Assembly (NCBI RefSeq): GCF_963921235.1
Contig: NC_086108.1
Coordinates: 91,824,001-91,888,000 of the forward strand
Reading direction: 5' to 3'
DNA length: 64,000 nt
From: Mobula hypostoma
Taxonomy: Eukaryota
Part shown: piece by piece, positions 6,380 through 62,115 of the stretch
Layout: each line of letters begins with the position of its first letter
Position numbering within the stretch: the stretch's first letter is position 1
Made by a program: the position numbers and the translations under genes
The notes under the pieces: model-generated
The model's input: only the letters and a program-made list of their open reading frames with translations
The model's database searches: none
Told to the model about the DNA's origin: nothing

Positions 6380-7670
6380 GGAAAATCCAACTAAAAATAA
6401 TGGATACGGCCCAGTCCATCACAGGAAAAGCCCTTCCCACCATTGAGCGCATCTACAAGCAGCACTGCCACAAGAAAGCAGCATCCGTCATCAAGGCCCC
6501 CTACCATCCAGACCACATTCTCTTCTCTCAGCTGCCATTGGGAAGGAGGTACAGGAGCCTTAGGCCCCACAGCTTCAGCTTTAGGATCAATTATTACCCT
6601 ACAACCATCAGGGCACTGAACCAGCTTGGGTAACTGCACTCAGCTCAACACTAAACTGATTCAACAGCCTATAGACTCACTTTCAAGGACTCTACAACTC
6701 ATTTTCAGTATTATTTATCATTATATTTGCAAATTGATTGTCAGTCTTTGTGTGTAGTTTTTTATTGATTCTATTTGCCCTACTGTGAAGGCCTGCAAGA
6801 AAACAAATGTCAGGGTAGAATACAGTGACATGTACATACTTTGATAATACATTAACTTTGAACTTCGATTGTTCTGAAATGTGAACATACTTGTTAAGGA
6901 TGGAGTAAGTTAGCTTACTCCTCAGTGCCTCTTCTTTCCGTTGAGTGATATCAGTATGCTTTTACTGGTACCTGAGTCTGCCAGCTGAGAGATGAGTTAG
7001 ATTGGATGGTGCGTTGAGTATTGTCTGAACACACCACATGAAAATCTCGTACTAAGACCAAGGAATTGATTATAGACTTCAGGAAGGAGAAGTGGGGAGA
7101 AAACGAACCAATCCTCAGAGGGATGAGAGGTGGAAAGTGTGAGCAGCTTTAAGTTCCTGGGCATCAATATCTTGGAAGATTTGTCCTAGGCCCAATAAAT
7201 AAATGCAATCATAAAAAAGGCATGCCGGGCCTCAACTTAATTAAGTGCTTAACGAGATTCAGTTTATCACTGAAGTCTCTTGCAAATTTCTATAGCTGTC
7301 TGGTGGAGAGCATTTATTTTATGGCACAACTCGCTCCACCTTCAAGAGGCCGCAACTCAAGAAGGTGGCATCCATCATTAAGGACCCTTATAATCCAGGA
7401 CATGGCCTCTTCTCATTACTACCACCAGGGATGATATCCAGGAGCCTGAAGTTGCAGACTCAACGATTCAGGAACAACTTCTCCCCCTCCACCATCAGAT
7501 TCCTGAACAGTCCGTGGATCCGTGAACAGTATCTCATTATTCCATTGATGGATTATTTATTTATTTTGCAATTTATTGGAGTTTTATTTCTTCACCATGT
7601 ACAGTTGCACAAATCAACAAATTTCATGTTATATAAAACATGGAATAGAAACCTGATATTGATTCTGTAT
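6380..7670 (+). mobile_element. Two adjacent Rex1/Babar 3' fragments
   Basis: ORFs 6400-6633 and 7365-7685 encode KAASVIKAPYHPDHILFSQLPLGRRYRSL and SIIKDPYNPGHGLFSLLPPG...FRNNFSPSTIR. Confidence 0.75.
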
Positions 7671-12150: not shown

Positions 12151-15100
12151 TACCTCTTCCTCGAGACACCGCCTGGCCTGCTGCGTTCACCAACAACTTT
12201 GATGTGTGTTGCTTGAATTTCCAGCATCTGTAGAATTGCTCGTGTGAGGGAGAAAGTAAAGTCTGACGTAGCAATATTTCAGTGGAGTAAAGGAAATTAC
12301 AGTGCTATGAGAGAGGACGGTGAAAGTAAATTAGATGCTAGCAGGGATGACAGCAGAGCAGCAAGGGCTTGAGTTTCTAGGAAATATTAAGAAGATTCTG
12401 GATAGATGTAAAACGAGGAAATACCTAAATGGCAAAATAGTACAACCATGGCTGAGAAGGGAATTAAAAGCTAATGTAAAAGCAACAGAGGGGACATACA
12501 ACAAAGCAAAAATTAAGATAGAGGTTTGGGAAGCTTTTAAGAAACTACAGAAAGCAACAAGAATCATTAGGATACAAAAGATGAAATATGAAACCTAGCG
12601 AGCAAACAACATCAAGGTGGATAGAAAAGGACTTTTCAAGTATATTAAAAATAGAGAGGTGAGAGTGGATATAGGACCACTAGAAAATGGGGCCTGAGAA
12701 ATAATATTGGGGGACAAGGTGATGTCAGATGAACTAAATGAGTATTTTGCATCAGTCTTCACTGTGGAAGACACTAGCTGTGTGCCAGATGTTGAAGGGT
12801 GTGAGGGAAGAGAAATGAGTGCAGTTACTATTACAAGGGAGAAGGTGCTCAAAAACTTGAAAGACTTAAAGATACATAAGTCACCCAGACCAGATGAACG
12901 ATACCTTAGGGTTCTGAATGAGGTAGCGGTCGAGATTGTGGAGAAATAAGTAATGATTTTTCAAGAATCACTGGACTCTGACATAATTGTAAAATTGCAA
13001 ATGTCACTCCACTCTTAAAGGAGGAAGGCACCAGAAAGGAAATTATAGACCAGTTAGCCTGACCTCAGTAGTTGGGAAGATGTTGGAGTCAATTGTTAAG
13101 GATGAGGTTGTGGAGTACTTGGTGACACTGGACAAGATAGGACAAAAGTCTGCATGGTTTCCTCAAGAGAAAATCTTGCCTGATGAACCTGTTGGAATTC
13201 TTTGAGGCGAATACAAGTAGGATAGATAAAAGGGATGCCATGGATGTTGTATATTTGGATTTTCAGACGGCCTTCGACAGGGTGCCACACTTGAGGCTGT
13301 CTACCAAGTTAAGAGCGCATGGTATTGCAGGAAAGTTACTAGCATGGGTGGAGCATTGGCTGATTGGTAGGAGGCAGTGAGTGCAAATAAGATGATCCTT
13401 TTCTGATTGGCTGCCAGTGACTAGTGGTGTTTCACAGGAGTCAGTGTTGGGACCGCTTCTTTTTATGCTGTATATAAATGATTTAGATGATGGAATAGAT
13501 GGCTTTGTTGCCAATTTTGCAGATGATACGAAGATTGGTGGAGGGGCAGGTAGTGTTGAGGAAACAGGTAGAGTGCAGAAGGACTTAGACAGATTAAGAG
13601 AATGGGCAAGAAACTGGCAAATGAAATACAATGTTAGAATGTCTAGGGCAAGAGAAATGGAGAAATTTCTTTAACCAGAGGGTGGTGAATTTATGGAATG
13701 TGTTACCACGGGTAGCTGTGGAGGCCCGGTCATTGGGTGTATTTAAGGCAGAGATCGATAGGTTCTTGACTGGCCATGACATCAATGGTTAAGGGGAGAA
13801 GAGCAGGCAGTGGGGCTGAAGAGGGGAAAAATGAAGCAGCCACGATTGAATGGCAGAGCAGACCTGATGGGCCAAATGACCTAGTTCTGCTCCTGTGTCT
13901 TAAGGTCTTATGCCAAACACCTGCACCTCAACGTTGCACCCCTGGCTGTTGTGGATTTCCTCAGAGGTGCCATAACTGTGGAAGACCTCCTCGATGAGTC
14001 TCTCAGTGGTGGTGGTAATGTTTTGGTCCAGGTCATGTATGCCTCTGACCACTCTGTGAAGTAATCCATGGCCACGGGAACGTAGCAGTTCCCACTGTCG
14101 GTGCAGGGAATGGACCAAGGATATCCACCCCTACGCACTCCATTGGGGCCCCCACCAGGTACTGCTGCACTGGTGCCCTAGACAGGTGACCCATCCCCTT
14201 CTGGGACGTGCAAGTGTCGCAACAGTGCACAAACTGCTCCACGCCCTACCAGCTCCCAAGCCAATAGAAGTGTTTGCACAACTTGCCCAACGTCTTTGTG
14301 ACCTTGAAATGGCTTGCCCCCACCAACCCGTGCACCGACCGCAGCACCATGACTTCCCGGGGAACCTCCAACTGTAGGAGATGTCTGTCACCATCGAAAA
14401 ATCTGCCACCAACAGAACAACAACCCGTTGTGCACCTCCAGTGTGCCCCACTGAGAATATAGGGCACCAGGGCAGAGACTACTGCCCACTCTATCCGCCA
14501 TCCCAAGGTCAGCCATCTCCTCACACGGGCTAGCACAGGGCCACTCTCCTGCTCGCTGCGCAGCCGCTGGCCAGTGATAGGGAGGTCTACCTCGCCGCTG
14601 GCTGCCCCCTGAAGCGCCGCCACCGCCGCTTGTCCCTGGCTCTACTCGTCGAGCGGTGACAGTAACGACACTCGATGGCCTCACAGGGATGGAGAGGGAG
14701 TGTGACAGGATTGCTGTGCTGCCTTCCAACGAGGTGCTATACATTGAAATCATCGTCCTGTAGAGCCTCTGGTCACTGCGCCAGCTGCCCCTTGGGACCG
14801 CGGAAGCTCAAATGCCAGCTCAGCGACACATGCTCCGTCCAAGAGGTCGGGGCGGAACTGGTGGATGGCCATGAACACCCGACAGGTGACACAACAGTTC
14901 AGTTCAGGGCGGTTCAAATACGCCACAACGCGTTCGCCTTGGACCCCTTCTGTGACAGAACTGCGCCAAACCGTGCCATCCCCACCCCTGATGCTGGCAT
15001 CTGCAGCAATGAAGGGGCACGCTGGATTGGGGTATCCCTGCACCAGGGCCTAGGTGAGCACAGCTCAGAGCTGGTCGAAAGCCGCATTGCCGGTGTGAGT

Positions 15101-17464
15101 CCAGGTGAAGGGCCTCCCCTTCTCAGTGAGCTGGTGCAGGGGCCTGGCAATGGTGGCGGTCCTGGATAAACTGGCAGTAGTATGATGCCAGCCGCAGGAA
15201 GCTGCAAAGCTCAGAGGCATCACGGAGGGTGGGCCATTCCCTGAACACCGCCACCTCCTCAGGGTCCTTTGCCACTTCTTCCACACTCACTGCGTGGCCC
15301 TGGAGCTTGGACTGGTAGCACAGCAGCCAGCTTTTTGCGGGGTTGATGTTCGCCTGGCTAATGGCGCCAAAGACCTCTTCCAGCTTCTGCAGAGCATCAT
15401 CAAGAATGGCAGTGAGCACCAGGAGATCGCCCAAGTAGATGACACAGTGATTCCGTGGAATGTGAGCCTGCACCCTCTCCATTAGTCTCTCTATGTGGCC
15501 GGGGTGCTACACAGGCCATCCGGCATTACCCAGAAGTGCCTTAGCCCTAGACCAATGATGAAGGCAGCCTTGGGCCAGTTCCGCCTACCACTACGGAGAT
15601 AGAACCAGTTCAAAGCCGTGATACAGTACAGGGTGTCATCGATTAGGGGCAGGAGGGTAGGAGCCCTTCTGGGTCACAGCATTGAGACTGCGATAGTCTA
15701 TGCAGAACCGCCGTGACCCATCTTTCTTCCTGACCAGCACAGGCTGCCAGAGGATTTGATGGTGCCAGCTGCTGCCACCTCTTTGATCCACTGCTCCACA
15801 CTGCCAAACATTTGGCAAGGGCCAGGCTATGGGGCTGCAGGCAGTAGGTCTGGGCAACCCCTGTGTTGGACCAGCCCCGTCAGTCTACAAGTCTCATCCT
15901 TGGCTGCAAAGATGTCGAGGGGCTGGTCCAGGTAGTGGTCTTTCAGCTGCCATTGCTGGACCTGATCCACGCCCTCCTGCTCTGCCGCCCCTGTTCAAGC
16001 ACCACCTGGCTGGCCTTGCTGGAGGGCAGCACAGGAGGGCTGCCGATGTCAACACACTGCGCTGACGTGGTTGCTGATGACAGGGGGACGGCGAGCTGTG
16101 CTGGGGCGGCCGGTGATAGTGCATGTCACCCCGTCGCAGGTTTCAGAGTGGTGCTCTGGGTTGCGTCGGGCTGCGGCGGCGTGTGCTGCATTGAGCAGGA
16201 GCCCTATCAGACCGGTGGTGGTCATTGCTCGCTCGTCTGATCTACTTCCTGGAGCTGCCCTGCCGGAGAGCCACGGCTTCAGTGCACATTGAGACGGAAC
16301 CCGCAGTGGGACGACAGGTCCAGGCCAATGACGCAAGACTCCTGGATGTCAGTGAGCCACATCTCATGCTCCACTGTGTTTTTCCCCACTGTAATACACA
16401 GCCTCCTCTTCCCTCTCATCGCTGCACAATCACCAATGACCGTCGCCAGCTGGACCGCCATCATTGTCCACCCAGGCGGGGATAGCTGGTCTGTGTTGGG
16501 GAGGACACCAGGACTGATGATGATGATGATGATGTTTGACCCTTTGTCCACCAGAGCAAAGCATCTGATGCCCTCTACCACACAGTCTGCATATAAGCCT
16601 TGCCCTTCACCCAAATGGCCTACCCGGAGAGGTGACAACAGAAGGATTCTGCTGGAGGTCTTGGGTGGCCAATGGATACGCTGGGCTGCAGCGTAGCACT
16701 TGTTCGTGGCCACACTAGAGCGCCTCAGAGGTCTAAAGTTTCTTTTGCCCTCTCTGCCTCCACCAGCTCCTTGGCCAGCAATGATGGTGATGTCAGGCAA
16801 ACGTACTGCTGAAGGAGCACCGGTGTCAGCGCTTCACAAAGGCTTGGACAGCAAGCCTTTCCTGGGCAATGGGAGGGAACTGAGGGTAACCATGCCAACC
16901 ACAGTGGCCGAGATCTGCAGTGAATGCCCCCAGGCTTTCTACCACCCGGTGCCGCCTGCTGCCCAGCTCTTCCCTCATTGCTTCCTCCAATGGCCTCTGC
17001 TTGAAATGCCGCTACCAGGTCCTATAGAAAGCTGTTCAGCTGGTGTTAGATTGAGGAGAGCCTCAGAGGGCATCCACCTCCAATGTCAGGGCAAGGTGCA
17101 GCGCCCTGCACCCATTGTGCCATGCAGCAAGTTTGACTTGTGCCAGGTAAGGCTCCAGGCGGCCAGTACCATTACATCTGGGGAGCTTTAGGGTAGACCT
17201 TGTGGCATTAATTCCTGGGGCCCATTGGTGATGCACTTCACCATTTACCTCAGGTTGCAAAGCCTGGGTATGAATGCCCCATTGAGGTTCCCTAGCAAGG
17301 CATGTATTTGGTTTCCAGGTTCTCCCTGCGGGTCGGCACCCAGTCTTTGGAAACCTGGCCTGGCGATGCGGGGCAGACATAATGCTTGGTCCCTCCACTT
17401 ATTCCCCAGGTCTTAAAACGCTCCGTCCAACATCGTAGCTCTTAAGTTTTGCCATCAATTTTTG

Positions 17465-22465: not shown

Positions 22466-25400
22466 TAGCATATAGAACATAGAATAGTACAGCACAAAAC
22501 AGGCCCTTCGGCCCACAATGTTGTGCTGAACCCTAAACCCTGCCTCCCATATAACCCCCCACCTTAAGTTCCTCCATATACCTGTCTAGTAGCGTCTCAA
22601 ATTTTACTAGCGTATCTGCCTCCACCACTGACTCAGGCAGTGCAGTCCACGCACCAACCACTCTCTGAGTAAAAAACCTTCTTCTAATATCCCCCCTGAA
22701 CTTCCCACCCCCCTACCTTAAAGCCACGTCCTCTTGTATTGAGCAGTGGTGCCCAGGGAAAGAAGCGCTGGCTGTCCACTCTATCTATTCCTCTTAATAT
22801 CTTGTACACCTCTATCATGTCTCCTCTCATCCTTCTCCTCTCCAAAGAGTAAAGCCCCAGCTCCCTTAATCTCTGATCATAATGCATACTCTCTAAACCA
22901 GGCAGCATCCTGGTAAATCTCCTCTGTACCCTTTCCAATGCTTCCACATTCTTCCTGCAGTGAAACAACCAGAACTGGATACAGTACTCCAAGTGTGGCC
23001 TAACCAGTGTTTTATAGAGCTGCATCATTACCTCACGATTCTTAAACTCTACCCCTCGACTTATAAAAGCTAACACCTCATAAACTTTCTTAACTACCCT
23101 ACCTACCTGTGAGGCAACTTTCAGGGATCTGTGGATGTGTACCCCCAGATCCCTCTGCTCCTCCACGCTACCAAGAATCCTGCCATTTACTTTGTACTCT
23201 GCCTTGGAGTTTGTCCTTCCAAAGTGTACCACCTCTCACTTCTCCGGGTTGAACTCCATCTGCCACTTCTCAGCCCACTTCCGCATCCTATCAATGTCTC
23301 TCTGCAATCTTCGACAATCCTCTACACTATCCATAACACCACCAACCCTTGTGTCATCTGCAAACTTGCCTACCCACCCTTCTACCCCTACATCCAGTTC
23401 GTTAATAAAAATCACGAAAAGTAGAGGTCTCAGAACCAATCCTTTTGGGACACCACTAGTCACAACCCTCCAATCTAAATGTACTCCCTCCACCATGACC
23501 CTCTGCTTTCTGCAGGCAAGCCAATTCTGAATCCACCTGGCCAAACTTCCCTGGATTCCATGCCTTCTGACTTTCTGAATAAGCCTACCGTATGGAACCT
23601 TGTGGTAATGCCTTACTAAAATCCATGTAGATCACACCCACTGCACTACCCTCATCTATATGCCTGGTCACCTCCTTAAAGAACTCTATCAGGCTTGTTA
23701 GATGCAATCTGCCCTTCACAAAGCCATGCTGACTGTTCCTGATCAAACCATGATTCTCTGAATGCCCATAGATCCTAACTCTAAGAATCTTTTCCAACAG
23801 CTTTCCCACCACAGACATAAGGCTCACTGGTCTATAATTACCCGGACTATCCCTGCTACCTTTTTTGAGCAAGGGGACAATATTCGCCTCCCTCCAATCC
23901 TCCGGTACCATTCCCGTGGACAACAAGGACATAAAGAACCTAACCAGAGACTCAGCAACCTCTTCCCTCACCTTGTGGAGCAGCCTGGGGAATATTCTGT
24001 CAGGCTCTGGGGACTTATCCGTTCTAATGTATTTTAACAACTCCAACACCTCCGCTCCCTTAATATCAACATGCTCCAGAACATCAACCTCACTCATATT
24101 GTCCTCACCATCATCAAGTTCCCTCTCATTGGTGAATACGAAAATAAGTATTCACTGAGGACCTCGCTCACTTCCACAGTCTCCAGGCACATCTCCCCAC
24201 CTTTATCTCTAATCAGTCCTACCTTCACTCCTGTCATCCTTTTGTTCTTCAAATAATTGAAGAATGCCTTGGGGGTTTCCTTTACCCTACTCGCCAAGGT
24301 CTTCTCATGCCCCCTTCTTGCTCTTCTCAGCCCCTTCTTAAGCTCCTTTCTTGCTATCCTATATTCCTCAATAGACCCATCTGATCCTTGATTCCTAAAC
24401 CTCATGTATGCTGCCTTATTCCACCTGTCTAGATTTTCCACCTCACTTGTCACCCATGATTCCTTCACCCTTCCATTCCTTATCTTCCTCACCAGGACAA
24501 ATTTATCCTTAACATCCTGCAAGAGATCCCTAAACATCGACCACATGTCCTTAGTATATTTCCCTGCAAATACATCATCCCAATTCACATCCGCAAGTTC
24601 GAGCCTTGCAGCCTCAGAATTTGCCCTTCCCCAATTAAAAATTTTCCTGTCCTCTCTGATTCTATCCTTTTCCATGATAATGCTAAAGGCCAGGAAGCGG
24701 TGGTCACTGTCCTCCAGATGCTCACCCACTGAGAGATCTGTGACCTGACCCAGTTCATTACCTAATGCTAGATCTAGAATGGCATTCCCCCTAGTCGGTC
24801 TGTCAACGTACTCTGACAGGAATCTGTCCTGGACACACTTAACAAAATCTGCCCCATCTAAACCATTGGAACTGATCAGGGGTGCCATCAATATTAGGGC
24901 AGTTAAAGTCACCCATGATAACAACCCTGTTAATTTTGCACCTTTCCAGAATCTGCCTCCCAATCTGTTTCTTGGTATCTCTGCTGCTACCAGGGGGCCT
25001 ATAGAATACTCCCAATAGCGTAACTGCTCCCTTCCTGTTCCTGACTTCTACCCATACTGACTCAAAAGAGGATCCTGCTACATTACACACCTTTTCTGTA
25101 GTTGTAATAGTATCCCTGACCAGTAATGTCACCCCTCCTCCCCTCTTCCCCCCTCCCCCAATCCCTTTTAAAGCTCTGAAATCCAGGAATATTGAGAATC
25201 CTTTCCTGCCCTGGTGCCAGCCAAGTCTCTGTAATGGCCACTGCATCATAACTCCATGTATGTATCCAAGCTCTCAGTTCTTCACCTTTGTTCCTGATGC
25301 TTCTTGCATTGAAGTACACGCACTTTAGCAATTCTACCTTATTACCTTTACACCCTTTATTCTGCTTCGCTTTTCTCAAACCCTCTTTATATGTTAGATC

Positions 25401-26757
25401 TGGCTTTACTCTATGCACTATACTTGCAGTTCTTGCATGACCTTTATCCTCCTCCACCTCACTATCTGCTCTAACACTCTGGTTCCCCTCCCCCTGCAAA
25501 TCTAGTTTAAACCCCCCAGAGCAGCACTAGCAAACCTTTCCGAAAGGATGTTAGTCTCCCTGCAGTTCAAGTGTAAACCGTCCCGTCGGAACAGGTCCCA
25601 CCATCCCTGGAACAAGACCCAGTTTTCCAGAAACATGAAGCCCTCCCTCCTGCACCAACTCCTTAGCCACGTATTTAGCTGCATTATCTTCCTATTTCTA
25701 GCCTCACTAGCACATGGCACGGCTAGAAATCCTGAGATTGCAACCCTGGAGGTCCTGTCTTTCAACTTTGCACCTAACTCCCTAAACTCTCTTTGCAGGA
25801 CCTCCTCCTTCTTCCTATCCATGCCATTGGTCCCTACATGGACCACAACATCTGGCTGCTCACCCTCACTGTTGAGAATACTGAGAACTCGATCCGAGAT
25901 ATCACAGACCCTGGCATCAGGGAGGCAACAGACCATCTGGGACTCTCGATCTCTCCCACAGAACCTCTTATCTGTCCCCCATATATCGAATCCCCTATCA
26001 CTACTGCTCTCCTCTTTTCCCTCCTTCCCTTCTGAGCTGAGGGCCTCATCTCGGTGCCAGAGACGCAACCACTGCAACTTGTCCCTGGTAGGTCATCCCC
26101 ACAAACAATATCTAAAATGGTATACTTCTTGTTGATGGGAACAGCCACAGGGGTGTTCTGCTCTTTCTGTCTATTCCCCTTCCCTCTCCTGACAGTCACC
26201 CAGCTACCTGCCTCCTGACTTTTAGGGGTGACTATCTCCCTGAAACTCCTGTCTATTTCTGCCTCTGCCTCAGGAATGATCTGAAGTTCATCCAGCTCCA
26301 GCTCTAGTTCCCTAACTCAGTTTGTCAGGAGCTGCAGCTGAATGCACCTTTTACAGATGTAGTCATCAGGGACAATTGTGTTCGCCCTGACTTCCCACCT
26401 ACTGCAAACTGAGCACTCGACTGACCTAACTGCTGCCTCCATTACCTACTTCTAAGTTAGTTAGATTAATTAAAGGAGCTTACCCGGCCTTACCTCACTG
26501 GGAGCAAGCTCGTCCTCAGCCTCTGCTTGCCGAAGCCTCTCGAGCCAAAGCCTTCCTACTCTGTCTCCCAGTACTCCGTCGCCTGCTCCGTTAATCTGCT
26601 CACTTTTTAAACTCTCCCACTGTTCTCACAGGCTGACCTTCACGCACTTGCACAGTCGCGCCCTGTTCAAACTACCAAAGAAATGACCTTCCCCTTACTC
26701 AATCTGCTCGCTTTTTAAACTCTCCCGCTGTTCTCACAGGCCGACCTTCACGCGCTT
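22466..26757 (-). mobile_element. Near full-length CR1 LINE (5'UTR, ORF1, ORF2, 3' tail), with stops and frameshifts
   Basis: ORF2 pieces at 22684-25499: CVYFNARSIRNK...AITETWL, GVFYRPP, MGDFN, TRGNAILDL...DSDH, NYRPVSL, SQHGFVKG, FADDT, RPHLEYC. (CTATGTT)-type tail. Confidence 0.95.
25502..26442 (-). pseudogene. CR1 ORF1 (N-terminal Cys finger plus SGNH esterase-like domain), frameshifted
   Basis: ATG at 26442: MEAAVRSVECSVC...YICKRC; then VVIGDSI, MVCCLPDARV, VVVHVGTN and DGLHLN. Confidence 0.85.
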
Positions 26758-27330
26758 TTGCCTACAGAACTGCCTTTCACTGAGTTTTGTGTTTTGTACT
26801 ATTCTCTGTAAATTCTAGAGACTGTTGTGTGTGAAAATCTCAGGTGATCATCAGTTTCTGCGATACTCAAACCACACTGTCTGGCACCAACAATCATTCC
26901 ATGGTCAAGTCACTTGGAACGTATTTCTTCTCCATTCAGATGTTTGGTTTGAACAACAGCTGAACTTCTTCATTATGTCTTAATGCATTGAGTTGCTGTC
27001 ACATCATTGGTTGATTAGATATTTGTATTAACCAGTAGATGCACCAGATAAAGTGGCCACTATGTGTGTATGCCCTGTCTAATTAGAAAATCCGATAAAC
27101 CTATTGTAGATGCTTTAGCAGCTCACCATATTTCTTTGTGTTTCTCTATATACTCTGCATTGTTACGTTTGAGGTAATGAATGCAGACACAGAAAATTGA
27201 CAATGAGGTTACAAAATATAAACTTTAAGTTTATCAGGGAATGTGTGTGATCTATTTGAGGGATAAGTGTCAATCCCCATGACCACTTTGAACTCATGAA
27301 CAGATTAGTTGTTTCAAATTTGACCTAATT

Positions 27331-27408
27331 CAGTGATTCCCAACCTTTATATACCATGGACCCCTACCATTAACCATGGGGTCCATGGACCCCCAGTTGG
27401 GAACCCCG
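27331..27408. mobile_element. 78-bp hAT-type MITE
   Basis: TIRs CAGTGATTCCCAAC and GTTGGGAACCCCG; 8-bp TSD ACCTAATT/ACCTAGTT. Second copy at 49140-49232. Confidence 0.8.
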
Positions 27409-28139
27409 ACCTAGTTTAAGTTCATAGAAGACAGTGCATTATGGAAAAATAATGTTAATAGAAAGGACTTAGCCAGCTCCATCAAGGGCACTAGCCTCCA
27501 AAACATTGAAGATATCTTCAAACGATGATGACTCAGAAAGGCAACATCCATCATTGAAGACCTGTATCATTCCGGACATGCCCTCTTCTGATTGCTACCA
27601 TCCAGAAGGAGATTCCGGAGCCTGAAGACACACATTCAACATTTTAGGAACTGCTTCTTCTCCTCCATCATCAGATTTATAAATGGTCAATAAACACATG
27701 TACACGACTTCACTACTTTTTTTTTGCTGTCCTTTTGCACTACCTGTTATGTTTTGTAAACTCCAAAACAAAAAACTAATTGAACGGAGTCCAACATAAG
27801 AGTCTAACTTTGTTTTATACTTTGAGAGAGATGTGCATGATAGCATACTAAATGCCATTTATGTATTTTTATATACAATCTGCAATGCATTATCTAAACA
27901 AACAAGAATTTTTAATCGAACTACATATATATACACACACACACACTCAGTATATCTTAGTTGGATATCTGCAGGCTTCGGTTCAGTATCTTTGAAATGC
28001 CATTCAAATTCATTCACAGCATTGTAAATGTTTTATATTTTCCCATTCAGACCTAAAGGTTTAATTGCTGTGGAGGCTTTCTTATCTGGTGGGATAATGT
28101 ATTTTCTGACAAGCGGGATCACTCTGTTTGGCAGGTGAG

Positions 28140-28376
28140 GAGGAGGGGAGGGAACGTCAACTCAGACCATGAGAGGCCTACGTTGGGCATTTTCATGCCT
28201 TACAAGGCGCAGATTGGAAGTCTATGTGAGGCTCCACTCCTCGCACAGTGTAGAGCAATGTGTGATTAAGTGCCTTGCTCAAGGGCACAAACACGCTGCC
28301 ACAGCTGAGGCTCAAACTAGCGATCTTGAGGTAACTAGACGAATGCCTTAACCACTTGGCCACGTGCCCAACACAC
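28140..28376 (-). mobile_element. tRNA-derived SINE
   Basis: Head TGGCCAAGTGG, core CCTTGAGCAAGGCACTTAA; 12-bp TSD TTGGCAGGTGAG at 28128-28139 and 28377-28388. Confidence 0.85.
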
Positions 28377-28479
28377 TTGGCAGGTGAGACTTGTGGCTAT
28401 AAAACAATCTGAGGTTCTGGTGGTTGTTTAAGTTGACTCTGAGACCGCAGGAAGTGGCTCTGACAGCTCTGGACACCTT

Positions 28480-29212
28480 TCTTCTCCTTTTCTTGGCTTT
28501 TCTCTCTGGATCTATTTCAATGCTTGCTTCTCACCTGGTCCTGGCTTTTTTCTCTCTCTTTATCCTGCTCTTTTTTTTCTCAAGTTTCTTCTCTCTTTCA
28601 TGCCTTTCTCTTTATCACTCATGTTCCTTCACTCTGTCTCTTCGCTTCTTTTTGACTTCTTGATTTTGTTTATCCCGCCTTCCTTTTTATTCTTCTTGCT
28701 AAATTCTGGAGAAATTCGGTCTTGTTTATCCTCTTCCATTTCCATAGCATTTATGTCATCCTTGTCCTTCTTTTCCTGCTTCTTCTTTCTACGATGTGCA
28801 TCTTGATTTTGTGTATTTAGTTCTCACTGGAGTATTCTCTTATTAATCCTTCTATTGTTCCCTTTTCTATCTGATCAATCCTCTTGGTTTCTGCATCCAC
28901 AACACCATCTAATGAATACTCTGTTTTCGTATCTCCATTGACTCCTTTCTCTTTAGCCTTCCATTCATCCCGTAGGGCTATGACCTTTGCATTTACTTTT
29001 ACATGCAGCTTTTTGTTTCCTACTTGAAGTTCAGGCAATAACCAAAATGCACATAGAGTAGATTCTGGTACTTTATACTCACGACAGCTGAATGCTTGCA
29101 ACTTTCCTAAAGGTCCTTGAACTCTCTTCTAGCTTAATACCAAGCCACATTTCGCAAGTAACTGCCTGATTAACATATCAGAAGCTCTTTCAGATATGTT
29201 ACCTACAAAAAC
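28480..29212 (-). pseudogene. RBM25: Intronless RBM25 fragment (RRM plus RE/RD-rich region), decayed retrocopy
   Basis: Translates as VFVGNISERASDMLIRQLLAKCGLVLS*KRVQGPLGKLQAFSCREYKVPESTLCAFWLLPELQVGNKKLHVKVNAK...DEWKAK...IEGLIREYSSE, then after a frameshift KKKQEKKDKDDINAMEMEEDK...RSREKS. This matches vertebrate RBM25 as I recall it. Confidence 0.9.
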
Positions 29213-30379
29213 CTTTGCACCACATGCAAGCCCAAAGTGGCTTGTTGGTTGTTGTATTTCCCTATTATGAATGTTATTCCCACAGGAGTTATCTTTCCTC
29301 CTGTATAATTTCTTAGTTGGATATCTACATTATCTTTGAAATGCTGATCAAACTTCTTTTGTGGAATAACAGAAACAGCCGAATCAGAGACCAATTTCAT
29401 TTTAATTAATTGGCAGTTAACTTCTGGCGTAAGCCATATTGCTTGCCTATTGTTAATTTTCATCTTATAAATCTTAATGTTACCCACTACTACGTCACTC
29501 TCAAATTTATCAAATTTTCCATCAAAAGCATGCAGATTAGTGCTCTTTTTGAAACTACAAATTGACTTTTTAGCTTCTTCTCTTCCCTGTGTAGTCCATT
29601 TATTTTTGTCAGCCTGACATGCTCTTTGTATGCCTCCTACTTTCTTACATTTTCTGCAAGTTTCACCTTTAAACTTGCATTGTTCTAATGTATGTGAGCC
29701 CCTGCTACAATGGTAAAACAATTTGTTCAGGCAGGTTGGTTTCTGCTTTGAAGTTGCAATTTTGTTCATGCTCACTTTCATTGCTGACTGCAACTCAACC
29801 ATTTCTGTCTGTTTCCATTGATACAGCTATTTCAACTGCTCTTTTAAATGTAAGCTGTGCTTCAGTTAGGAGCCATTTTTGAATGTCCACAAACTAATTG
29901 CATCATTAAGCCCATTATGGAACTAAGAATGCTCAAGTAACTTCTTCAATTCAGCCATGTATGGTAAAGTGGGCTCCCTTTTCTTTTGATTACACTTATG
30001 AAACCTAAAGTGTTCTGCAATCAATAGTGGTTGTGGTTCTAAATATTTCTGCATTACTTTCATGATATCAGCAAATATCATTTCAGCTGGTTTGTTGGAG
30101 CAGTTAAACTTCAGAGCAAACTGTATGCCTTTAAATCTAATGTACTCTGTAAAATTGGTACTTGTTTCTCATTGGCTATTTCATTTGCTTTAAAATACTG
30201 CTCAATTCACTCGGTAATATATGAGCCAGTTATTCGTTGTGTAATGGAATGTGTCTACCTTTCCGATGTAGCAAACAATTTTCTAAAAAGCAGAAATGAT
30301 TTATGGTTATTATCACCTGATATTCACTGTTTGTGAACCCATGAGTTTGTCTGTTTTCCTTCTTTTTAAAAAATTCTGA

Positions 30380-30970
30380 CATAGAAACATAGAAAACCTA
30401 AAGCATAATACAGGCCCTTTGGCCCACGAAGTTGTGCCGAACATGTCCCTAACTTAGAAATTACCAGGCTTACCTATAGCCCTCTATTTTTCTAAGCTCC
30501 ATTTACCTATCCAAAAGTCTCGTAAAAGACCCTATTGTATTCGCATCCACCACCATTGCCGGCAGCCCATCTATGCACTCACCACTCTCTGAGTAAAAAA
30601 CTTACCCCTGATATCTCCTCTGTACCTACTCCCCAGCACCTTAAACCTGTATCCTCTTGTGGCAAACATTTAGGCCCTGGGAAAATGCCTCTGACTATCC
30701 ACATGATCAATGCCTCTCAACATCTTATACACCTCTATCAGGTCACCGCTCATGCTCCACGGAGAAAAGGCCGAGTTCACTCAACCTGTTTTAATAAGGC
30801 ATGCTCCCCAATCCAGGCAACATCCTTATAAATCTCTTCTGCACCCTTTCTATGGCTTCCACATCCTTCCTGCAGTGGGGCTACCAGAACTGAGCACAGT
30901 ACTCCAAGTGGGGTCTGACCAGGGTCCTATATAGCTGCAACATTACCTCTTGGTTCCTAAATTCAATAGA
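30380..30970 (-). mobile_element. CR1 LINE 3' fragment
   Basis: (CATAGAAA)n tail at 30380 and reverse-complement ORF2 C-terminus. Confidence 0.85.
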
Positions 30971-32106
30971 CAATAGACAATTTTAAATTCTTCTCTAGAA
31001 GCCAGTTTAAATGCCCTGTTCTGAAGGATCGAAATGTGTCCATTGTCCATCAATTCTCTGGGTATGTACATCCCATTAGTGAACCAATCATAAACTGAAA
31101 TCAGTCTTGATGTAAAGTCCCCTGTCCTCTCCTATGATATTCATTCTTCTTCAGCCCTTTACCTCTTCCACCTATCAGCTTTTCACTTCATTCTCCCCTC
31201 CTTTATCCATCCATCTTCCCTCTCACCCGGCTTCACATATCACTTACCATCCTGTCCCATCACTTCCCCTCTCCCCACACACAGTACTTATTCTGGATTT
31301 TTCCCCCTTTCTTTCCAGCCCTGATGAAGAGACCAGGTGGAAAATATCAGCTGTTTATTCCTCTCCATAAATGCTGCCCAACATACTGAGTTCCTACAGC
31401 ATTTTGTGTTTGTTGATGCAGGGGTCTGAAACATTTCCTGCCACAGATTCTACTCAACCCACTGTGTTCTTCCAGCAGATTGTCTGCTGCACCAAGTGAA
31501 ATGTAGTGAATCGTCTTTGATGTGCAAATGCGTTTGTCTCTAGCTTTCTTCCAGTTGCTTTACTATGCCTGTCTTGCACAATTCTTATAAATACAGCCCC
31601 ACTCACCTTCTAACCTGATCCTTAACTAAGATTTCTCCCTTTTGGGCTCTCAATAATCTGCTCCATATTTTTACTATAGAACATACCTGTCCTTGGCACT
31701 ACTGAGTCCAGCTTGTTTATGAGCTTCAACTGGAAGCCAAGTTTTAAAACTTTTTAAATTAAAAAAAAACTTTTATTGTTGGCTTGTAACCTGATTTCTT
31801 GTAATATAGTATCTAAAATTTCACAGCTTTCAGGTTGTACATAGAACACATTTTTATGTCACATAACAAAGTGGAAATTGATGGTGATGTTAAGAATGCA
31901 CAAAGAAAGGAGTAAGGAAATCTATTCTTCTAACAGAAATGGCTTCTGAAAGGTAGAACGCATTAGCAAATCTTTTAACAGCACTGATAGCTAAATGGAC
32001 TTTATTTGACAAAACAGAAGAGCAGTCACAGGATTTCATAAATCCTAAACAATCAGAAAGTCAGAAGACTGAAAAATTTGGGACTTGAGATCTGAAATCA
32101 GGCAAG

Positions 32107-33404: not shown

Positions 33405-33619
33405 AAACAAGAGAAAATCTTCAGATGCTGGAAATCCAAGCAACACACTCAAAATGCTGGAGGAAATTTGCAAGCCAGGCAGCAGCTATGTAAAAGAGGA
33501 AACAGTCGATGTTTCGGGCTGAGACCCTTCATCAGGACTTGGCCCGAAACAACAAATGTTTACTATTTTCCATAGCTGCTGTCTGGCCTGCTGAGTTCCT
33601 CCAGCATTTTGTGTGTGTA
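33405..33619. mobile_element. Inverted-repeat Penelope-derived mini-element
   Basis: Head-to-head arms; flanks AGGAGACTCAGAA/AGGAAACTCAGAA. Confidence 0.8.
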
Positions 33620-35262
33620 GGTAGGAAACTCAGAACCTGCACCATCAGGTTCAGGGACAGTTATTACCCCTCAACCATCAGACTGTTGAACCAAAGATGA
33701 TAACTTCACACCCCATCACTGAACAGCTCCCACAGAACTGTACTCATTTTAAATCTCATGTTCTCAATATTTATTGCTTATTTATTAGTACTATTATGTT
33801 ATACTATTATTATTATATTATAAACCAGGGTACTGTCTGATTTATAGAGTATGCATTATGATCAGAGATTAAGGGAGCTAGGGCTTTACTCTTTGGAGAG
33901 AAGGAGAATGAGAGGAGACATGATAGAGGTATACAAGATATTAAGAGGAATAGATAGAGTGGACGGCCTGCGCTTCTTCCCCAGAGCACCACTGCTCAAT
34001 ACAAGAGGACATGGCTTTAAGGTAAGGGGTGGGAAGTTCAAGGGGGATGTTAGAGGAAGGTTTTTTTACTCAGAGAGTGGTTGGTGCGTGGAATGCACTG
34101 CCTGAGTCAGTGGTGGAGGCAGATACACTAGTGAAATTTAAGAGACTACTAGACAGGTATATGGAGGAATCTAAGGTGGTGGGGGGTGAAATGGGAGGCA
34201 GGGTTTGAGGGTTAGCACAACATTGTGGGCCAAAGGGCCTGTACTATGCTGTACTGTTCTATTGTTTTGTTCTTACTTTTCGTATTTGCACAGTTTTTGT
34301 TGCTTTTTTTGTGCACATTGGTTGTTGTCCAACCAGATGGGTATTGTCTTGCACTGACTCTATCGTGTTTCTTGGATTTACAGTGATTGCCCACAAGAAA
34401 GTTAATCTCAGGGTTGTACATGGTGACATATATGTACTTTGATCATACATCTTGAACTTTGAACTTAGGCGCGATTTTGAAGCTTAGAGTCCAAATCAGA
34501 ATCTGAAGTGCATGGGATAGAGTGGGGTGTAATGCTCTTGGGGATACAATGGAAGTCATCCACCATCACCTTACTTACTTTAGGCGAATGTAGTGAAAGC
34601 TTTTTAAACACACTGGGTCTCTGCCAGGAACCAGCAGAGAAATTCCATCTATCCCATTCCCCCCTCCTTATTTCCTCAGACTCCTGCAATCAATTTTCTC
34701 TCACCTGCTCATCAACTTCCCCTTCTTTTGACATATGCCTAGAATTAGGACAATTTACCGTGGCCAATTTACCAACCAGCATATCTTCGGGACGTGGAAG
34801 AAAACTAGAGTTGCAAGGAGAACAAATGGGCATAAATGGAAAATTGAAGCTGGACTAGAAGGAAGTGTTCTTTCCGGTGGATCAGAATCACGTTCAGATA
34901 TGCAAATGGGAACTATGTAGAAATGTGTGATATGACCTGAGCTTCATAGATTATAATGCTCATATGTGTGTCAAATCTCGTTCAAAACTGTCGTACTTTA
35001 TATGTTCTATTTAAGTTGAAAAAATATGAGGAGAAGGAGTCGATAAGTTAGAACAAAATGTAGTCCAGTTCAGGGCAGCTCGTTAGTGTAGTAGTTAGTG
35101 CAATCACTTTACAGTGCCAGTGATCCGTGATCACGGTTCGACTCCCTCACTGTCTGTATGTTCTCCTCATGACTACATAGGATTCCTCTGGGTCCTCCAG
35201 TTTCCTCCCATATTCCAAAGACGTACCAGTTAGGGTTTAGTGAGCTGTAGCTGTATACTGAT

Positions 35263-35666: not shown

Positions 35667-36769
35667 GCTGTATACTGATAGTGTCAGAAGTGTGGCAACC
35701 TTTTCAGACTGTGTTGGTTGTTGACACAAAACAGTGCATTTCACTGCGTGTTTTGATGTGCATGTGACAAATAAAAATAATATTTTTAAAGCTAATCTTC
35801 AATGCCAATCGTAATAGTCTTAAAACAAACAACAAGCTGATGGAGACATTTCCGCTGGATTGGAACTAAAGCAGGAATTATCTGTGGTGATTACAAGATG
35901 ATATTGACAAGGAGCGGAGGCTGCTGTGGATTTCACAAGACATAAATGCAGAATCAGCAGGAGCCAACATTTTCACCAAAATTAATTTGTCACAGATAAA
36001 TATTCTGAGTGGAATGTGGTTAAGGGGAGTCAGAAATATTTCACAATGAACATGTTTACTCTTATATAAAATTAACTCATGAAAGGAAACCATCAACAAA
36101 CATCTCTTAAGGATATAAAGGACAAGATACAACACAGCAGAGGTACGTCAAGTGCCAAACGCATACATTACAAGCACTAAAGAAAATCTTTGAACATCAG
36201 AAGTCTTTGATCAACCACATAAGTACAACGTTAAGCTCAAGCAGGGCAAATGTGCATTCACCTTAGAGCCTGATGAAGGGCCTTGGTCTGAAACATAAAT
36301 TGTTTATTCCTGCCGTTGATGGTGCCTGAATTACTGAATCCCACCAGCATGTTGTATGTAGTGCTGAATAATGTCACTTTCCGCAATAGGGTTTACTTGT
36401 GCTTGAGTTACCAAGGCTCGGTTAACTCAGAACCTAATTGAGTTCAGTTCAGCCCAATCATTAGACGCAGATGAAAGGAAAACAGTTGAGAGGGGGAAAA
36501 AGTTTTGACTGAAGTCATGGAGAAAAGCAATTCAAACAATGTAATAAGGTGAACATTGCCTGGCAAGTATGACTTTTGAAACGTGGATGTGAGAGTGAGA
36601 GTGAGAGTTCAAATTTGCGATGCAAAGAAGTGCCTGCAGAAAAAAGGAAATAGCATAACAGATGTGAATGCAAGTCGCACAGGTCCAGCAAGAGATATAC
36701 ACAAGAATATCAAAATAATGTAGATGCATAAAAATTGTAAATTGTCCTACGATTTGTAAATTGTCCCTG

Positions 36770-48130: not shown

Positions 48131-50248
48131 CAGACTCAATGGGATGAGTGATCTAATTCTGCTCCTATGTTTATAGTCTTTCAGAATCAATTCAATAATT
48201 TCTACAGTTAGATATATTTCTATGTTGACATTTGATCAGGAATGTAAGAGATGTCTGCAATTATATTGGCAATCGGGCTGCTTTAGATGGATTAGCCAAG
48301 ATGCTGGATCAGGTCAGACAGCTTCATGTTGCTGGCATGAGAATGGATGTTTACAATCTATCTAATGTATGAGCCGCGTTTTCCCCCCGATGAGGTTTTT
48401 TTTTGTATTCTGCTTGATGGTTGTCCAGGAATTGAAGGCTCAGAGCATCTGTGCAGATAAATCCCACAAGCAAATACTAAACCCCGTAAACCTGTGTAAG
48501 GCCCCTGAAAACCTGCTCAGTGTTTTTCCTTTCTGCCTGTGGCGATAACCTTATGGCATTTCCCCATGGAGCTCTGCTGTTCTAGCAGGATTTTTCTTTC
48601 AAGTTTCTCCTGCATGTTTCGGCATTTTAATCCTTGGCCAGTGCCTACCTCTCATTCTTTGACCTGAAAAGTCAATGACCTCAGAAATATTTTGATCGCA
48701 GCAGAGTCATAAACTGGGAGAAAAAGGAACGGAAAGAAAATCTCCTTTTGCTCCTCTGAGGCCTGCATTCTTGATCAGCCTCACTACCAAACTTCCTTCA
48801 AAGGCTTGGCTGATTCTGATGGGTGTAAGAGTGTTCATTACTTTTGCTTGTTGGAAGACCTTGGAGTCTTCTTTGAGTAGAGAAAAACTGCTGAATGCAG
48901 TTATAAAAAATTCTATTTCCCATCATTATTGAGTATGCCTAACCATGGCTTAAGCAGTTCTTTACAAAATAGACAAGCTGTGGGCAAATTATAAGTCAGA
49001 TTGTAAAATAAAACACTTTTCAATTAATTTATTGTTTCAAACTGTTTGTCTCTACATATGTAACGTGATGAATGTGCAAAGTATGCTTGTTAGTATGATC
49101 CCACCTCTCAGTATGGAGTACTTTGATGTAAAATTAGAACAGTAGTTCCCAACTTTTTTTATGCCATGGAGCCTCGCCTTGGAGCCTTACCACTAACCGA
49201 GGGGTCCATGGACTCTGGGTTGGGAGTGCCTGGATAAGAGTATTGGGAGCAAGACTAGAGATTTAGAGGTGAAATTGGGGAAGGGTTTCAGAGCCTGTAC
49301 TCAAAAGGTCAGAGCCTGTATCCTAATGGGTCAGCTCAAAACATTGGTGAGGGCACTATGCTAATTGATGTAAGGAGTTCCAGCTGCTCTATAAGTAAGT
49401 GATGGTCCATGCAGAGCCCAACAATGGTCTAATTTCCTTTACAATATTCCAAAAGAGAGAGAAATATGTTCCTTCTGTATTCCACTCATCTGGAAATCAA
49501 ATTTGCTTACAATTCACACTGCCTCAGTAAAGCAGCCGGCATAATCAAAGACCTCACTTACCCCTGGCATTCTCTCTTCTCCCCTCTTCCATTGGACAGA
49601 AGATCTAAAAACCAGGAAGTACATAATACCAGACTGAAGGACGGCTTGTACCCGGCTGTCATAAGATGATTCCCAAGTGTGACAGGATGAAATCTTACCC
49701 TCACTAAGAACCTCATTAAGATCTCGCACTTTATTGTTCAGCAGCACTGCACTTTCTCTGTAGCTATTACCCTTTATTCTGCATTGTTATTGCTTTATCT
49801 TGTTCTGCCTCAATGCATTGTGTAATAATTTAATTTGTATGAACAGTATACAAGACAAACTTTTCACTGTATCTCAGTATGAGACAATAATAAACCAATT
49901 CCAATTCCAAAATCAGGCACATGTGTGATGATTCTTTGAAATAATCAGTTGAATTTCTGAAATGACATGAAAAAAGTCCAAAAATTGTGATTGCTACCTC
50001 TCACTGCAAGGGGAAATATTCAATATACTAGCACAGAAAACCAAAGAGTATTTCTTATTGGATTGCTGCTCACATGTGTCAGGAGTGTAAAAGCACAAGG
50101 AAATTCCCTGGAAACCACAACACCTATTTTTTTTAGTGCCCCAGTCAAGAAATATTTACTATACAAGAGTATTGAGGAAGTCAGATGAAGACTAAAGAGA
50201 GCACAAGTGCTGAAATGTAGAACAAAAACAGAATATTGGAAGATCTCA

Positions 50249-51063: not shown

Positions 51064-51374
51064 TAGATTATTTATTTGTTGAGCTACAGCATGGAGTGGG
51101 CCCTTCTGGCCCTTCGAGCTGCACCGCCCAACAATCCCCAATTTAATCTTAACCTAATCACAGGACAATTCACAATGGCCAGTTAACCAACCAACTGGCC
51201 TATGGACTGTGGGAGGAAATGGGAGCACCCAGAGAAAACCTGGGGAGAACATACAAACCCCTTATAGACATTGGCAGGAATTGAACTCAGGTCACTGATA
51301 CTGTAAAACGTTGTGCTAGCTACTACACTACCATGGCAGCCCATTATTAACATAGTTAACTTTAAACTTAGTGT

Positions 51375-51865
51375 GGAAACCATAGAAAGGGTGCAGAGGA
51401 GATTTACAAAGATGTTACCTGGATTGGGGAGCATGCCTTATGAGAATAGGTTGCGTGAACTCGGCCTTTTCTCCTTGGAACGATGGAGGATGAGAGGTGA
51501 TCTGATAGAGGTGTACAAGATAATGAGAGGCATTGATTGTTGGATAGTCGGAGGCTTTTTCCCAGGGCTGAAATGGCTAGCACAAGAGGGCATAGTTTTA
51601 AGGTGCTTGGAAATAGGTACAGAGGAGTTGTCAGGAGTAAGTTTTTTACGCAAAGAGTGGTGAGAGCATGGAACGGACTGCCGGCAGTGGTGGTGGAGGC
51701 GGAAATGATAGGGTCTTTTAAGAGACTCTTGAATGGCTACCTGGAGCTTAGAAAAATAGAGGGCTATGGGTAAAGCCTAGGTAGTTCTAAGGTAGGGACA
51801 TGTTCGGCACAGCTTTGTGGGCCAAAAGGCCTGTATCATGCTGTAGGTTTTCTGTGTTCCTATGT
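51375..51865 (+). mobile_element. CR1 LINE 3' fragment
   Basis: ERVQRRFTKMLPGL...LGLFSLE...QRVVRAWNGLP. Confidence 0.85.
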
Positions 51866-61309: not shown

Positions 61310-62115
61310 TAAGGTTTTGCGCCTCAAATAGCTCTGACAACCAAGCCCAGCTCCTGGGCTTCACATGAATCTTAGCTACTAAGCCCAGCGGAACCGTTCC
61401 TATTGACAGGAGAAGGGGCACTGGCACCTTAAAACCAGTTGTTTCGGGCAGATGGGGCTCGTCAGCCGTGGTTGGCAGCTCATCTAGGAGAATGAAAACT
61501 TTGATCTCAAACTTCCGCTGTATTGTGGCTATATCCACTCACGGGGAAGGCATCGGGTGTAAACCCTGAGAGAAAAATCCGGAACTGGATCCTAAGGCAG
61601 TCCTACATTGAGTTCAACACTGACTGGCAATGCCCACAATGCTGCTGGTACCAAACCGTATCAGTCTCTGCCATTCCTTTGGGTGCTTCAGATGCATGGA
61701 GGGAGGGAGCTTGCTACATGGAAAACACCTTGCTCTCCATATTGTACTGCCTAGGCTTGCATACCAGCGGTGCATGGCCAAGTGGTTAGGGTGTTGGGCT
61801 AGCGATCTGAAGGTCGTGGGGTCGAGCCTCGGCCGAGGCAGCTTTTGTGTTCTTGAGCAAGGCACTTAACCACACAATGCTCCAGTCTACCCAGCTGAGT
61901 ACCAGCAAAAATGCTGGGGGTTAACCTCGCGATAGACTGGGGTCCTCTCCGGGGGGGGGGGGGGCAGAGTCTCGTACTCTCAGTCACTTTCATGCTATGG
62001 AAACCGGCATAAGCACCAGCCTGATGGGCCACAAGGCTTGTGACAGACTTTAATCTATAAAAAAAATGCTTGCATACCTAGGCAGCTAAGACATAATATC
62101 CAAGGTCAACTCTGA
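61310..62115 (+). mobile_element. RTE-like 5'-region element interrupted by a SINE
   Basis: Motif CAGCTCATCTAGGAGAATGAAAACTTTGATCTCAAAC resembles RTE 5' UTRs as I recall them; no ORF. Confidence 0.35.
61766..62067 (+). mobile_element. tRNA-derived SINE (same head and core as 28140-28376, different tail)
   Basis: TGGCCAAGTGG, GGTCGAGCC, CTTGAGCAAGGCACTTAAC, A tail; 11-bp TSD GCTTGCATACC. Confidence 0.85.

Follow-up and report, generated by a model that had tools for sequence, protein, structure and literature searches.

In the LTR-mediated retrocopies of Tan et al. (2016, Genome Res, PMC5131818), part of a spliced host mRNA replaces internal open reading frames (ORFs) of a long terminal repeat (LTR) retrotransposon. 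Such retrocopies are cut at both ends, lack poly-A and target-site duplications (TSDs), and can be recopied as a non-autonomous element; microsimilarity was present at 25 of 29 fly junctions, and older cases had lost one LTR side. The Discussion of the same paper treats maize Bs1, an LTR element with spliced host exons that was recopied with shared switch points, is present at 1-5 copies per Zea species and draws on three donor genes. Chaparro et al. (2015, PMC4350172) describe plant TR-GAG elements as shorter than 4 kb, retaining gag but not the enzymes, and having spread. A study on Pseudocercospora (10.1101/550798) reports histone H3 within a hAT DNA transposon in hundreds of dead copies across related species, and capture by template switching in plants is covered in a review (PMC13317346). 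The locus that we compare with these systems lies in a 64-kb stretch of the Mobula hypostoma genome (GCF_963921235.1, contig NC_086108.1), hereafter the window, and occupies positions 27745-30330, read on the minus strand. It is a Gypsy LTR retrotransposon in which the core of pol has given way to an apparently spliced piece of RBM25, a host gene that encodes a splicing factor. We favor LTR-mediated capture of RBM25 mRNA followed by amplification as a non-autonomous family, with a probability of roughly three in four.

Read on the minus strand, the element runs from Gypsy gag-protease through RBM25 into a Gypsy integrase tail, with the following core features:

29215-30279, minus strand: Gypsy gag, two zinc knuckles and aspartic protease, decayed (tblastn to aa 4-346 of P0121/P0147)
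28487-29212, minus strand: internal piece of RBM25, intron-free (protein matches, RRM_1 profile, exon junctions of locus L001)
28377-28486, minus strand: first half of the integrase C-terminal tail, Pro/Ser/Thr-rich (translation; contig joins)
28053-28139, minus strand: second half of the integrase tail, with YPTR, a frameshift, RKPPQQLNL and a stop (motif of Gypsy relatives)

Much like the LTR-mediated retrocopies, the locus has a host piece between discontinuous parts of one LTR element, free of introns and cut at both ends; the difference is that contig depth here points to hundreds to ~1,000 copies, common to three organisms. Compared with Bs1, there is one donor, a vertebrate host and far greater depth. 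TR-GAGs hold gag only, whereas most of the protease, the integrase tail and host cDNA are present here; by analogy the element may work like a TR-GAG, but it is no member of that group. The hAT-borne histone H3 is a precedent for scale but concerns a DNA transposon in a fungus and inactivation through repeat-induced point mutation (RIP). The capture mechanism is already described; the scale and the age are unusual. No publication on an RBM25-carrying Gypsy family was found among the listed titles and openings of abstracts, and RBM25 is absent from the main text of an elasmobranch LTR retrocopy paper.

The Gypsy parts were aligned by tblastn to a 'K02A2.6'-like Gypsy polyprotein of the loach Triplophysa rosa (P0121/P0147). 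Residues 4-42 align to 30212-30096 at 59% and residues 44-346 to 30093-29215 at 43% (E 2e-63), and gag-protease has 258 relatives at E<=0.001. Likeness to the loach polyprotein extends over Gag, two zinc knuckles, the protease and a YPxRxxKPPxxLxL terminus; the loach proteins differ in possessing reverse transcriptase (RT), RNase H and integrase, and are distant relatives, not the direct parent. These loach proteins are probably of the Mag clade. Both zinc knuckles and the catalytic Asp of the protease are degenerate in the alignment, and a Pfam search of the window's own gag/protease ORFs gave no match. In P0147, Pfam domains mark the protease at aa 273-359, RT at 464-614, RNase H at 662-793 and integrase at 905-1065. 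The protease of the element is truncated ~13 residues short of its Pfam domain end, and the RT, RNase H and integrase core that an autonomous Gypsy would carry (P0147 aa 464-1065) have no match in 27700-30450. Homology to the polyprotein breaks off after aa 346 and is seen again only in the C-terminal motif, and this gap of 911 missing aa indicates that pol was replaced, not interrupted.

These alignments bear out the preliminary description of this DNA, made from the sequence alone, in its account of gag, zinc knuckles and protease (30279-29215) giving way to RBM25 on the minus strand at 29212, and of the absent enzymes. Its switch into an integrase tail near 28480 holds for the tail itself, which starts at 28486, but the YPTR/RKPPQQLNL motif is located at 28096-28056 and the tail is split by a SINE-like insert (short interspersed nuclear element, SINE). 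A terminal motif of this type closes 4 of 152 Gypsy relatives (P0147, P0173, P0204 and P0208). Both flanks match a single type of Gypsy polyprotein, with strong likeness over the N-terminal 346 aa and weak likeness in the C-terminal motif when taken alone. Contigs of 4 of 24 listed runs, representing organisms A (run X1), B and L, were aligned to 27650-30450 at 80% likeness; they include 3 of the 20 runs in which the stretch is present, whole or in part. The weak tail match is backed by 37 of these contigs (four runs; here and below, counts of joints are among those listed), which link RBM25 at 28824-28827 to the tail at 28485-28494. One of the relatives, P0173 (Metynnis hypsauchen, 652 aa), has gag, protease and the terminal motif with no Pfam match to RT, RNase H or integrase, and appears to be either an internally deleted element or a gene-model artefact. 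A second decayed Gypsy pol, GC-rich and of a different lineage, lies at 14069-15749 on the minus strand (RT, RNase H and integrase zinc region; 24-30% to P0121).

The RBM25 sequence, VFVGNISERASD, begins at 29212. Its 131-codon stretch (with X at the stop) is matched by 255 of 1,537 longer candidates (best 69%, E 1e-41) and by 23 of 136 candidates of similar length; the best match overall is the RBM25-like protein P0122 of Heptranchias perlo (79%, E 2e-51), so the earlier identification stands. The piece comprises the whole RNA recognition motif (RRM) from its first residue, the linker and the start of the RE/RD-rich region, covering positions 1-69 of the RRM_1 profile and beginning exactly at profile position 1. 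Scores of the variable linker are 88-100 with the three proteins of the shark RBM25 cluster and do not exceed 59 with the remaining 167 RBM25 hits, which points to a cartilaginous-fish-type donor and fits a host origin. With the linker closest to shark RBM25, horizontal transfer of the piece is not favored.

The piece had been described as about 730 nt of uninterrupted RBM25 coding sequence. It is without introns but damaged: codon 28 (in the RRM) is a stop, the frame shifts near 28823, and there is a 25-nt gap at 28696/28695, with more stops downstream. At 16 of 77 RRM residues it is unlike P0122, against a median of 4 among 135 RBM25 hits, and its frame does not agree with that of the protease ORF (offset 2). 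The element here is a neutral fossil, in line with its earlier designation as dead; that designation cited one stop, frameshifts and the out-of-frame protease junction.

Intron loss was read from L001, a vertebrate RBM25 genomic locus that is not from the host and is the only locus from a metagenome scan of ~2/64 parts. Its AG/GT-bounded exons lie at 129-311, 2522-2575, 2833-2916, 6519-6787 and from 7758. Window positions 28899-28765, 28762-28696 and 28695-28603 match three L001 exons at 67-73% DNA identity, and these exons are separated by 2,521 and 3,602 nt; in all, 454 nt of the window cover 7,662 nt of L001. At junction 28760, the following 24 nt agree with the next exon at 21/24 and with the intron at 8/24, and the preceding 24 nt agree with the previous exon at 19/24 and with the intron end at 2/24. 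At junction 28505 the corresponding values for exon versus intron are 9/10 vs 3/10 and 16/24 vs 5/24. The DTHK/KLEE junction falls inside the 25-nt gap. The shark proteins P0122 and P0146 read through at KKEE and DTHK, which suggests that sharks have the same introns. At the GKLQ anchor, among 162 proteins, 13 end, 12 have a 5-aa insert and 1 continues into unrelated sequence, implying a probable further exon junction after GKLQ. Judged by these alignments, the RBM25 piece is spliced and spans several exons of the vertebrate locus. L001 additionally contains a 54-nt cassette exon (2522-2575), absent from the captured piece and from shark-cluster P0146.

The RBM25 piece is internal and has the same sense as the element. 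Poly-A is absent, the longest A run in 28430-28620 being 8 nt and lying within the K/E/R-rich coding part, and a TSD around RBM25 is absent as well, with 8 nt as the longest word common to both flanks. This word was rejected as a TSD as it abuts neither junction. Missing introns, a partial mRNA and the lack of poly-A and TSD, the last two already reported along with the orientation, are the marks of LTR-mediated retrocopies, whereas the hallmarks of a processed pseudogene made by a long interspersed nuclear element (LINE), namely poly-A, TSD and the mRNA 3′ end, were not found. One alternative nevertheless begins with such a pseudogene: LINE-made RBM25 would have inserted into a Gypsy, deletions would have trimmed poly-A, TSDs and most of pol, and Gypsy enzymes would have amplified the product, so that the resulting family would be identical and only the founding step would differ. 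LINE fragments are plentiful in the window, and a 443-nt contig of single-copy depth (X5 record 25), which aligns without gaps at 80% to 28975-29212 and from exactly 29212 onward has 203 unlike letters, hints at an intron-free RBM25 with another upstream neighbor; either a separate processed copy or a copy whose 5′ neighbor differs may be its source. This origin would, however, need two extra deletions that trim both mRNA ends and remove 911 pol codons while sparing the element ends, and it leaves the missing poly-A and TSD to be accounted for. Moreover, LINE copying begins at the mRNA 3′ end, whereas the piece ends ~480 codons before the RBM25 C-terminus. We consider a LINE-made founder unlikely. 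The three findings that had been named in advance as contrary to LTR-mediated retroposition (a best match other than RBM25, a piece from a single exon of the parent gene, and flanks from different elements) did not occur, which supports that proposal.

LTR-mediated capture would have started with RBM25 mRNA packaged together with Gypsy RNA in a virus-like particle. From a point in the integrase tail, the reverse transcriptase would have switched to the mRNA, copied ~725 nt and gone back to the Gypsy template close to the protease end, such that two template switches onto the co-packaged message replaced RT, RNase H and the integrase core. An element with neither RT nor integrase, and with a truncated protease, would need mobilization in trans, and the hybrid would have spread with the enzymes of intact relatives, its retained gag and terminal signals helping the packaging of its RNA.

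Around the core, the following further features can be distinguished:

30379-30964, minus strand: LINE-type 3′ fragment (84% over 495 nt to 51372-51865; 70% over 598 nt to 22472-23049)
30280-30378, minus strand: putative remnant of the 5′ leader (from its position)
28140-28376, minus strand: SINE-like repeat (12-nt TSD; second copy at 61775-61882, 77%)
27950-28014, minus strand: second protease scrap, 65 nt (alignment; P0147 aa 296-314)
27745-27949, minus strand: putative LTR-like 3′ terminus with CA as its last letters (repeated sequence; depth 372-1,236 in X1)

The protease scrap had been overlooked in the preliminary feature list. It follows the tail stop and precedes the LTR-like end, at the expected position of the polypurine tract, and no purine run of at least 8 nt exists in 27930-28056. 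The scrap contains 12 nt absent from the main protease copy, and therefore comes from another family member or is older than that deletion. Its depth is 50,124 in X1, and 27 contigs join 28008/28014 to 29391. Possibly it records an additional template switch. The scrap also bears on a founder made at the DNA level, in which RBM25 cDNA patched a double-strand break in an integrated Gypsy and non-autonomous spread followed: this would likewise yield an internal, poly-A-free piece in place of pol, and the scrap shows that short templated patches exist in this copy. Such a founder is quite improbable, as free RBM25 cDNA and a 2.7-kb deletion would be required simultaneously, whereas template switching would produce the structure in a single step and has documented cases across animals (PMC5131818).

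Amplification, which had been raised as a possibility, is consistent with high contig depth in three organisms. Two X1 contigs are identical to this locus, at depths of 12.6 and 14.1. The RRM bins of X1 average a depth of 12,491, ~890-990x this locus, but such a summed depth is not a copy number, being inflated by overlapping contigs and deflated by divergence (a caveat that belongs with the adverse points below), and we therefore put the hybrid family at probably somewhere from hundreds of copies to about a thousand. As many as 126 contigs overlie a single RRM site, with at most 128 countable. The ratio of RRM to gag-protease depth is similar in the three organisms (0.33 in A, 0.40 in B and 0.35 in L), and the run of organism L shares only 9% of the window's words; this suggests that capture and spread predate the A/L split. 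In run X22, presumably of RNA, the ratio is higher (1.22), a value that we do not read as a sign of expression. One contig of B departs from this locus in 5 of 228 letters and probably stems from this insertion itself, which would then probably predate the A/B split. At 29219, 218 contigs of X1 and 212 of X5 depart from the window with loose letters that resemble, by eye, the protease continuation of P0121 and P0174, as would be expected of relatives that kept pol. Viral contigs contained no related locus for RBM25, gag-protease or a 20-nt pattern.

Alternatively, a single dead chimera could have multiplied by segmental or tandem duplication, giving the high depth with no retrotransposition of the hybrid. 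Against this, 46 contigs (four runs) join the tail half at 28377-28486 to 28074-28085 without the SINE-like insert present in this copy, and 40,538 of the 51,471 aligned X1 contigs are less than 95% alike, with more than 90% of depth differing from this copy at many sites. In addition, neither a tandem array nor a second RBM25 copy exists in the 64-kb window. Duplication is accordingly very improbable, and amplification of a captured piece as a non-autonomous family is retained. The 37 contigs that join 28824 to the tail may represent a short form or copies whose middle is too diverged to align. That joint coincides with the frameshift of this copy (~28823), and a short RRM-only subfamily may exist.

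Several observations weigh against capture and amplification as set out here. The exon structure was taken from a non-host vertebrate locus, and the junction at 28933 (NG|, in the variable linker) is weak, at 11/24 to the exon start. For the last 16 aa of P0147 the tail is the best match in the window, with a score of 34 vs 32 for the next. Depth in the RE-rich part (28496-28777) is only 2-3% of that of gag, and the LTR-like end has ~30-95x the depth of the locus in X1 vs ~2,900x for gag-protease. So low a depth is unlike a real LTR, unless the LTR of this copy is badly diverged; heavy decay here may explain both low values. The LTR-like end, described earlier from the sequence, is a repeated stretch and does close with CA, but neither a partner for it nor a 5′ LTR was found in the window. 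The partner search gave best scores of 51 and 48 vs 41-44 for five shuffles; the hits at 48867-49037 and 35755-35835 were rejected as 5′ LTRs at noise level, their alignments resembling AT-rich noise. At the 5′ junction, no family-wide joint or indel appears among the listed 15 of 2,154 joints, 12 of 111 indels and 24 of 7,182 loose ends, and contigs on the RBM25 side end at or before 29220 (from_end at 29138, 29187 and 29189, among the rows listed). RBM25 and protease are linked by only one of the listed contigs (X5, 28950 joined to 29222). Other copies may have a different 5′ junction; this copy may differ from them right at the junction, and its out-of-frame state may be private.

The same junction leads to a bolder, rather doubtful proposal: a founder in which the RRM stood in frame behind Gag, so that each of its Gag proteins carried a host RNA-binding domain, and in which the RRM gave an advantage in packaging or RNA processing that drove the hybrid to about one third of gag-bearing copies. 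The leads are that the capture starts at RRM profile position 1, that relatives encode gag-pol as one ORF (P0147) and that contigs of other copies seem to diverge right at the junction. Counting against it, this copy is out of frame, and no fusion of Gag/protease with RBM25 or its RRM occurs among the 150 of 258 relatives listed or among the RBM25 hits inspected. If true, it would be a case of a retrotransposon exapting a splicing-factor domain.

Described animal cases involve a handful of copies, and host cDNA as a major repeat family of several species would take the 'pseudo-LTR element' step of Tan et al. to its limit. Hundreds of dated copies would make it testable whether the cargo is neutral or useful, and whether small RNAs silence or regulate the donor. 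Such copies would also confound RBM25 annotation, read mapping and retrocopy counts. The Vertebrate Genomes Project (VGP) pipeline filters candidates that overlap repeats by at least 40% (PMC13320880), and could therefore miss RBM25-carrying copies.

Later events are recorded at both ends of the element. The SINE-like insert at 28376-28140, a label assigned by eye, splits the tail and is bounded by a perfect 12-nt TSD (28388-28377 / 28139-28128). Its depth is 2.8-7.2e5 in X1, and the region gave no tRNA with ARAGORN and no Rfam match (27000-32000). The 3′ bin of the insert has 7.5x gag depth in A and 0.06x in L, and this difference, together with the 46 contigs that lack the insert, indicates that it came later. 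The order of events would then be capture and spread before the A/L split, this insertion probably before the A/B split, and the SINE-like insertion afterwards; the subsequent decay of this copy and the SINE-like insertion are directly visible in its sequence. At the 5′ end, the bin 30282-30375 has a depth of 639 in X1 vs 12.6-14.1 for the locus's own contigs, and 30280-30378 is a probable remnant of the element's 5′ leader. At 30379, each DNA run has 246-279 contigs with unrelated loose ends; the LINE fragment that starts there, presumably CR1-like, is likely a later insertion. Elsewhere in the window, open frames at 25502-26316 have a match resembling GDSL lipases (PF13472, E 7e-6, short of the curated cut-off) and are probably ORF1 of a CR1-type LINE. 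At 33422-33639, two related repeats in head-to-head orientation form an inverted pair of 105 nt with 77% complementarity, separated by 8 nt.

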